64,000 nt of DNA from an uncultured delta proteobacterium (GTDB taxonomy: Bacteria; Desulfobacterota; Syntrophorhabdia; Syntrophorhabdales; WCHB1-27). Location of the stretch: positions 352,001 through 416,000 of the forward strand of contig CAWEPK010000007.1 of NCBI GenBank assembly GCA_963810935.1. Reading direction: 5' to 3'. Under the pieces are notes generated by a model that was given only the letters and a program-made list of their open reading frames with translations, ran no database searches and was not told the DNA's origin. This document shows positions 48,993 to 49,418 of this stretch, one piece after another (within the stretch, counting starts at the first letter, position 1; each line of letters opens with the position of its first letter). Position numbers and translations under genes: made by a program.

Positions 48993-49080
48993 AGGATATC
49001 CCTTTCATACCACTATGTCAAAGCGACAACCAGGGGTGACAACCAGACATGACATGGAGAGGTGACATGGAGGGGTGACA
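48993..49080 (-). promoter_or_regulatory. Leftward promoter with 5x13-bp repeat array
   Basis: Minus strand TGTCACCCCTCCA/TGTCACCTCTCCA/TGTCATGTCTGGT/TGTCACCCCTGGT/TGTCGCTTTGACA-17-TATCCT. Confidence 0.8.
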
Positions 49081-49330
49081 GAAAGCACGTCCGGAATTGT
49101 TTTTCATTTTCTTTTGTTCTAAGTCTTGCCATAGTGGTAATACTGTGTGACGCCTGATCGGGCCTCGGCGTCTTGCGGGGTCTCGATGCGGTCGAAGGGA
49201 TACGTGCTATGCACCGGAGGGACGTTGAACGCCGCCGCGAAGCGCAGGAAGCAGACGTGCTCCGTCGCGTGCCGTTATCGTGTTTGAAGCCGCGCGAAAA
49301 AACTTTGAAAAAAATTTAAATCATGCAAAT

Positions 49331-49418
49331 TGTCACCCCTGGTTGTCACCCCTCCTTGTCACTCCTCCATGTCACCCCTGGTTGTCACTTTGACAGGTTT
49401 TGCCGCCTGCAATAAGCT
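49331..49418 (+). promoter_or_regulatory. Rightward promoter with 5x13-bp repeat array
   Basis: TGTCACCCCTGGT/TGTCACCCCTCCT/TGTCACTCCTCCA/TGTCACCCCTGGT/TGTCACTTTGACA-17-TAAGCT. Confidence 0.8.

Follow-up and report, generated by a model that had tools for sequence, protein, structure and literature searches.

Five-unit 13-bp repeat arrays at two divergent promoters as candidate sites of a putative small phage late activator in Syntrophorhabdales

The window, by which we mean the whole stretch of 64,000 nucleotides analysed here (contig CAWEPK010000007.1, positions 352,001 to 416,000, referred to as C7), comes from a 4.06-Mb genome of an uncultured member of the Syntrophorhabdales, called G000; other G and L numbers denote further genomes and loci. 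It contains two arrays of five 13-bp units in inverted orientation, the right one at 49331–49395 on the plus strand, with units of the family consensus TGTCRYNYCTSSW, and the left one at 49016–49080 on the minus strand. The 65-bp elements are identical at 53 of 65 positions and lie 250 bp apart. The last unit, of the form TGTCRCTTTGACA, reads TGTCACTTTGACA on the right and TGTCGCTTTGACA on the left, and both arrays end in TTGACA, so placed that the -35 hexamers fall at 49390–49395 and 49021–49016; exactly 17 bp further on follows a -10 hexamer, TAAGCT at 49413–49418 on the plus strand and TATCCT at 48993–48998 on the minus strand. Ahead of each array stands a leader with an A-tract, accompanied by a TGC-containing stretch on the right (49296–49330, plus strand) and by TGCTTT on the left (49081–49120, minus strand). 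An earlier note, made from the letters alone, had described two such inverted arrays, and its coordinates, unit count, separation and 17-bp spacing were all reproduced. A promoter scan of the window listed the left promoter and missed the right one, because TAAGCT matches the consensus at three of six positions.

The arrays are neither chance patterns nor products of assembly. In 200 shuffles of the window the longest run of units, at any period from 8 to 20, was one to three, against the five observed. A public soil DNA run holds a contig covering 48853–50277, and thus both arrays, and a second contig covering 48924–49290 with zero differences; these contigs come from four runs of one study, which possibly sampled the source itself. 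That a contig crosses both arrays disposes of the assembly artefact that the earlier note had considered. The same data do reveal small errors in the assembly: the contigs of all four runs have one base fewer near 49458–49461, and another extra assembly base lies at 48612. Scanning the whole genome for tandem arrays, as the earlier note had proposed, gave only three runs of at least three units at period 13, namely the two window arrays and a third at C12:224788, with the arrangement TTGACA-17-TATGGT. A candidate regulator, Act, is described below.

The right array stands before an operon of virus particle genes, all on the plus strand. The first of them (49426–49756) has no Pfam or PHROG match and is terS-like by position only. 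Its ATG at 49426 lies 7 nt beyond the right -10, so that the mRNA of the particle operon is likely leaderless; the extra base near 49458–49461 is likely an assembly error and, as it is missing from the soil contigs, the gene most likely starts at this ATG and not at 49454. There follow the terminase large subunit (terL, 49743–51164), a P22-like portal (51079–53331), a scaffold, the coat (55124–56380) and then adaptor, head closure, one ejection protein and collar fibre, with a holin-like gene just outside the window. A coat gene occurs as a single locus in 10 of 61 genomes, 70–83% identical, and a THUMP methyltransferase gene adjoins the capsid cluster in at least 7 of 11 loci, a count in which the G021 locus is too short, the flank of G012 is not covered and G002 and G008 have other neighbours. 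G001 gave no coat match, though it keeps array, terL and portal. None of the eight tyrosine-integrase matches in the genome lies on contig C7, the search being for the tyrosine type; by inspection, integrase-like ORFs stand upstream of the array in G002. The capsid cluster is syntenic and looks domesticated, and the right array likely heads a virus particle kept by the host. Between portal and scaffold, at 53519–53615, three plus two copies of GTGACA with a 12-bp period surround an AT-rich site, an arrangement also found in L192 and L193; the AT-rich site looks IHF-like, and the repeats could be integrase arm sites or the relic of an origin.

On the left, the first gene (47735–48908, minus strand) has a signal-peptide-like start and is broken into several frameshifted pieces, likely parts of one secreted protein, with a PD40 repeat in the last piece. 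Beyond it lie the N-terminal part of an M23 peptidase (47311–47694) and, on the same strand, the end of M23 plus a glucosaminidase as the C-terminal part (42470–43648). The C-terminal part is 59% identical to an intact 526-aa M23-glucosaminidase in G001, where the hydrolase gene stands second behind a lone array and the first gene again begins with a signal-peptide-like segment. Phage-tail-lysozyme or SLT proteins stand behind other lone arrays, two of them with a secreted-type gene in front, so the link between array and hydrolase is recurrent. The cell-wall-hydrolase operon of the earlier note is thus real as a class, but in the present genome the halves of the gene are separated by an insertion of about 3.7 kb with an IS1-like fragment and a DUF3800 gene, and this copy is probably inactive. 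Many other window genes are split by frameshifts (e.g., 13073–15692, 33362–36827 and 39886–41020). Reads reveal single extra assembly bases at several places in 48400–51200, and apparent pseudogenes are therefore doubtful until checked. Elsewhere in the window, at 16418–18256, a KaiC-family ATPase with two small ORFs downstream sits inside a dense cluster of PAS histidine kinases.

The earlier note had supposed a single regulator encoded outside the window, and comparative evidence backs this, the candidate gene lying 123 kb from the window arrays. It was reached through a viral-database contig (L165) on which a CI-like gene, small divergent ORFs and Act are followed, 510 bp downstream of Act, by a perfect 5 × 13 array and then by terS-terL-portal-coat. 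Searching G000 with the L165 genes gave a CI match of 60% identity at C7:279505–280170 and an 85-aa ORF of 67% identity at C7:278049–278345, the latter being our "Act"; a phage replication initiator lies between the two. In each of the family loci inspected, the early module ends with Act. Of the 12 genomes with arrays, 11 have Act as a single copy at about 70% identity, and it was found in none of the 10 family members that have no arrays; this co-occurrence tracks three genera and is not independent. The exception, G003 (92% complete, 270 contigs), has three arrays and gave no match to Act or to the coat. A homologue of the CI gene occurs there in a different element (L361, C2:83337–86978), with a primase-like gene downstream and act absent. 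The module has no replication initiator in G001, G015 and L165, all three of which keep arrays and Act. Directly downstream of act in G000, on the same strand, C7:276243–277921 encodes an AbiEii toxin, preceded by its partner gene, a neighbourhood shared with G002. Two other proteins were considered as the regulator and rejected: a 137–143-aa HTH protein encoded behind class-2 arrays, which has no G000 homologue and matches terminase small subunits, and a zinc-ribbon ORF, for which no homologue was found in G000.

A profile search with Act collected 227 clusters at 50% identity. The G000 protein matches no Pfam or PHROG entry and no named family, and Sigma70_r4_2 is weakly matched by 8 of 120 family members (best E 0.003). 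Its core of about 65 aa is modelled by AF2 at pLDDT 95 as strand-helix-helix-hairpin-helix; the nearest neighbours by features are HTH_17, AlpA, Cox and DUF3853 (0.92–0.93), and PDB sequences gave weak HTH matches only. The model suggests that Act is likely a winged-helix-like small DNA-binding protein.

The CI-like repressor, present in 11 of 31 genomes, has a site of its own. In relatives, a palindrome resembling TATTACC-N5-GGTAATA flanks the CI gene, reaching into the -10 hexamer of the early promoter. With an operator model built on 20 sites outside G000, the three best hits in the genome are at its own CI gene and the fourth, at 19.9 bits, lies between the window arrays (49124–49142), the next one scoring 15.6. 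This candidate operator of the distant repressor has a counterpart in only one other of 93 array flanks and may therefore be a relic. Compared with LexA/CI motifs, the S24-like domain of the G000 protein appears to have neither an Ala-Gly cleavage site nor a catalytic serine.

Of 61 genomes, 12 have arrays of this kind: G000 itself and 11 of the 21 family members, against none of the 39 from other families. This Syntrophorhabdales clade of soil bacteria contributed 161 distinct arrays, 3 to 53 per genome. Five units are found in 98 of the 161, and a run of four or more A/T upstream in 118 of 154 against 42 of 154 control windows, both counts made after seven loci (L167, L169, L170, L172, L173, L174 and L405) had been removed as unrelated matches. 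Six of those seven are still inside the promoter statistics, in which a hexamer nAnnnT stands at spacer 16–18 in 83 of 89 arrays, bearing out the expected conservation of spacing in related loci, and a -10 at 17 ± 1 bp, weighted over 23 unrelated downstream classes, reaches 0.87 against 0.06–0.27 at 13 shifted control positions; the same loci also remain in part of the boxA and flank counts. The conservation expected upstream of homologous terminases was likewise found: the array is followed by TAAGCT in 11 of 11 terS-headed class 1 loci, with an ATG close after each, which we interpret as a leaderless start. The divergent pair of the earlier note held up in so far as two predicted promoters are present, but it is not a conserved unit, since most arrays stand alone and the third G000 array lies elsewhere. 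Three further divergent pairs, 169–213 bp, occur in G019 (L175, L176 and L177); in each, one array faces a lone HTH terS and the other a boxA leader, and toxin–antitoxin or type III restriction genes adjoin.

What lies downstream varies. Some arrays stand ahead of the capsid cluster or of a hydrolase pair, others ahead of a lone HTH small-terminase gene, of defence genes or of a non-coding leader. The defence genes are PDC-S46, behind the third G000 array, and Ppl-like genes in G001 and G017. At the former (C12:224788–227236; L001:8789–11236), a tiny ORF precedes an AT-rich AAA_13 gene in two frames, which match PADLOC PDC-S46 with E of 1e-55 and 2e-187 and make it a candidate defence gene. 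Within 260 nt downstream of 85 of the 161 arrays there is a boxA-like word, G[CT]TCTTTGA[CG]AA, which also stands about 60 nt ahead of the G000 16S gene and occurs in none of 93 upstream controls; downstream of the three G000 promoters there is none. Behind the boxA leaders, 28 of the next genes share the strand of the array and 31 run the other way, so these promoters are not simply there to drive the adjacent gene. Leaders of this class end in a repeat block resembling that at 53519–53615, with a different core. Rfam at the gathering score gave no match in seven array loci, that of the window included. Among dispersed copies, spacing, -10 and boxA are better conserved than the sequence between them, which suggests selection on the copies, but one site varied freely: of six sites orthologous to one dispersed copy, two have an array, each with its own upstream genes, and no boundary could be drawn. 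Such copies could be what remains of satellites, cassettes that start packaging, sinks for the activator or inducible promoters that have been co-opted. Arrays near smc-gltX in several genomes of three genera (L184, L075, L179, L189 and L080) suggest that this region is an old insertion hotspot.

As co-occurrence among kin is weak evidence, Act homologues were sought outside the family, in 400 genomes of the phylum (searched twice) and 95 of the order. Of 13 matches, 12 are plausible; L381 was discarded as a ferredoxin-like false match. At three of the 12 (L370, L371 and L372), a clean five-unit array ending in TTTGAC lies within about 20 bp of the Act stop codon, with a core of TGGGAC in L370 and of TGGCAC/TGTCAC in L371, both at 13 bp, and of TTGCAC at 12 bp in L372; the next genes are lysis-like rather than terS in L371 and terS-like in L372. 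Degenerate arrays accompany another three: L352, with a 13–14 bp period, TTGCAG-17-TATCCT and a Pfam terS downstream; L380, with a period of 15 bp; and L395. L391 has two to three units only. No array was found at the remaining five (L373, L374, L398 and two in L396); an integrase-like ORF stands downstream of L398, and other jobs are therefore conceivable for some of the Act homologues. In the genomes of L370, L371 and L372 (G182, G393 and G090), a loose array pattern matches once each, at the Act homologue gene. The reverse search, by a DNA-only array pattern in IMG/VR, found three loci, two of them distinct, and both have an Act homologue ending 50–80 bp upstream; one runs on into terS-terL-portal-like genes. 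A looser pattern gave seven viral loci, with Act nearby in four and absent nearby in L402, L404 and L405, and two further patterns gave no locus and one unrelated simple repeat. A close Act alignment, the deeper ones being too little conserved for such a search, matched L165 alone in IMG/VR, the Act query P0079 found no homologue among annotated phage records, and a targeted literature search returned nothing on the Act family and its site.

Taken together, we consider it probable, at roughly 0.8, that the window arrays are binding sites of Act and that Act would switch on divergent sigma70-type late promoters for the P22-like particle genes and for the secreted-protein/hydrolase pair. The CI-like repressor at C7:279505–280170 would hold the early promoter off through operators predicted from sequence, and upon derepression the rep-Act operon would be transcribed, as gene order implies. 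Five Act protomers would then bind the 13-bp units head-to-tail, from about -95 to -31 relative to the predicted start. The last site, abutting the perfect -35, would aid RNA polymerase in opening a promoter with a weak -10; it would be centred near -41, the position of a class II activator. In the clade, an ancestral prophage would have split into separate chromosomal loci and its late promoter would have been copied to 3–53 places.

The arrays could instead be operators at which a repressor, whether Act or some other protein, masks the -35, so that otherwise active promoters stay silent until induction. A perfect -35 inside the last unit and an upstream A-tract would suit such a role, and a MerR-like phage protein that binds direct repeats is described as repressing genes in mycobacteriophage D29 (PMC12266134). 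Yet Act lies behind a CI-operated early promoter and would be produced too late to keep late genes off; as it would be made only after induction, activation is preferred over repression. The -10 is moreover weak, mostly nAnnnT, and genes so placed are activators in all the tested Ltr cases reported by the cited source (PMC3753634). We regard repression as improbable, and give about the same small weight to the idea that the arrays are regulatory but read by a host regulator, the zinc-ribbon ORF or CI, with Act merely travelling along. G003, with arrays and no detected Act, is what such a reader would predict, the zinc-ribbon ORF shares the Act operon in several relatives, and the candidates screened were neighbours at one linked locus; against this, Act homologues adjoin arrays at six outside loci and at both loci that the DNA-only pattern retrieved, G000 gave no zinc-ribbon homologue, and CI has its own palindromic site.

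Other readings take the promoter match as incidental or the arrays as mobile ends. Iterons, a centromere-like site and a packaging site had been listed in the earlier note, and tandem direct repeats beside an AT-rich tract, directly upstream of terminase genes and served by a regulatory module that also encodes a phage replication initiator, would be expected of replication iterons, a partition site or a pac site. These fit less well than a regulator, for the -10 keeps its spacing across unrelated flanks, with leaderless starts behind it; the initiator is missing from the module in the three loci named above that retain arrays and Act; and in the outside prophages the array comes after Act, in L371 ahead of lysis-like genes instead of terS. 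Such a function is accordingly rated as very improbable. Less credible still is a MITE at 49016–49395, with ends that start with TG, internal transposase sites and an outward -35. The 380-bp segment with inverted ends beginning TGTCAAAG and the copy number of 3 to 53 recall such an element, but none of six divergent pairs has a target-site duplication, most arrays are unpaired, and the conserved side is the would-be target side, where there is a -10 not to be expected of random targets. The absent duplications and the conserved flanking -10 largely refute transposon or MITE ends.

Activation by Act, if true, pairs a small DNA-binding protein family of 227 clusters with a precise site and a proposed job, the control of late genes in phages of anaerobic Desulfobacterota. 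It would also offer a possible on-switch for a GTA-like system of podoviral type: producing a single protein of 65 residues should induce the particle, and the packaged content of the particle would become directly testable. With 3–53 promoter copies per genome, half of them followed by a boxA of the rRNA type, one may ask how the regulon of a tamed phage spreads through a host chromosome. A more far-reaching picture, which we regard as doubtful, is that the tamed podophage forms a clade-wide multi-locus particle system in which Act fires dozens of promoter copies, at lone small terminases, hydrolase/immunity pairs and antiterminated non-coding transcripts, setting the packaging site or the cargo, and that the copies spread by being packaged.

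Among known systems, the closest in action are the late regulators (Ltr) of Gram-positive phages, described as comprising RinA, ArpU, LtrA/Sigma70_r4, LtrB/DUF1492 and LtrC, and also Alt of TP901-1 (PMC3753634, PMC13123087). Reported sites span -76 to -32 for Alt and -107 to -42 for the Phi13 repeats (PMC3753634, PMC13123087), and here too direct repeats lie upstream of a terS promoter, at about -95 to -31. Act, last behind a CI-operated promoter, may share the position given for Ltr activators (PMC3753634); it adjoins its array in L165 and the outside prophages but lies 123 kb away in G000. The differences are substantial: the Act core has about 65 residues against about 15 kDa, the G000 protein matches no Ltr family in Pfam or PHROG, its hosts are Gram-negative Desulfobacterota, and the Act-linked arrays consist of five units of 12–15 bp ending in an intact -35, with sites multiplied in the clade. 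Since Act fails sequence membership of the Ltr families, we would by analogy call it Ltr-like in action and not an Ltr. Its size is in the range of small winged-helix proteins of the BldC, Xis, Cox and AlpA types (PMC5859096, PMC7498355), and its predicted strand-helix-helix-hairpin-helix fold may be of their kind; direct-repeat sites would suit head-to-tail binding as described for BldC (PMC5859096). Here, in contrast, the repeat period is 13 bp, and 12–15 bp in homologues, compared with the roughly one helical turn stated for Apl; five units are usual, and the proposed role is late-gene activation.

The overall layout resembles that of split-locus gene transfer agents, for which the cited accounts describe CcGTA with GafY/GafZ (PMC11150451), RcGTA with GafA (PMC6363796) and FpGTA (PMC12946183). 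As in these, a genome has a single head-tail cluster, whose place in the chromosome is shared between genomes, the presumed activator is encoded elsewhere, and accessory loci share the promoter; FpGTA, as reported, is likewise short-tailed and split, with a TerS that has no obvious DNA-binding domain (PMC12946183). What sets the present system apart is that Act and the CI-like repressor can be recognised as a phage early module, which in many cases retains a replication initiator, and that the promoter exists in dozens of additional copies. The boxA word behind the arrays is one base off the rRNA-leader consensus GYTCTTTAANA, which the source gives for gammaproteobacteria (PMC5725501). Set beside these systems, Act and its array are candidates for a new family of activators and a new binding site in the late control of phages, within a GTA-like multi-locus system.
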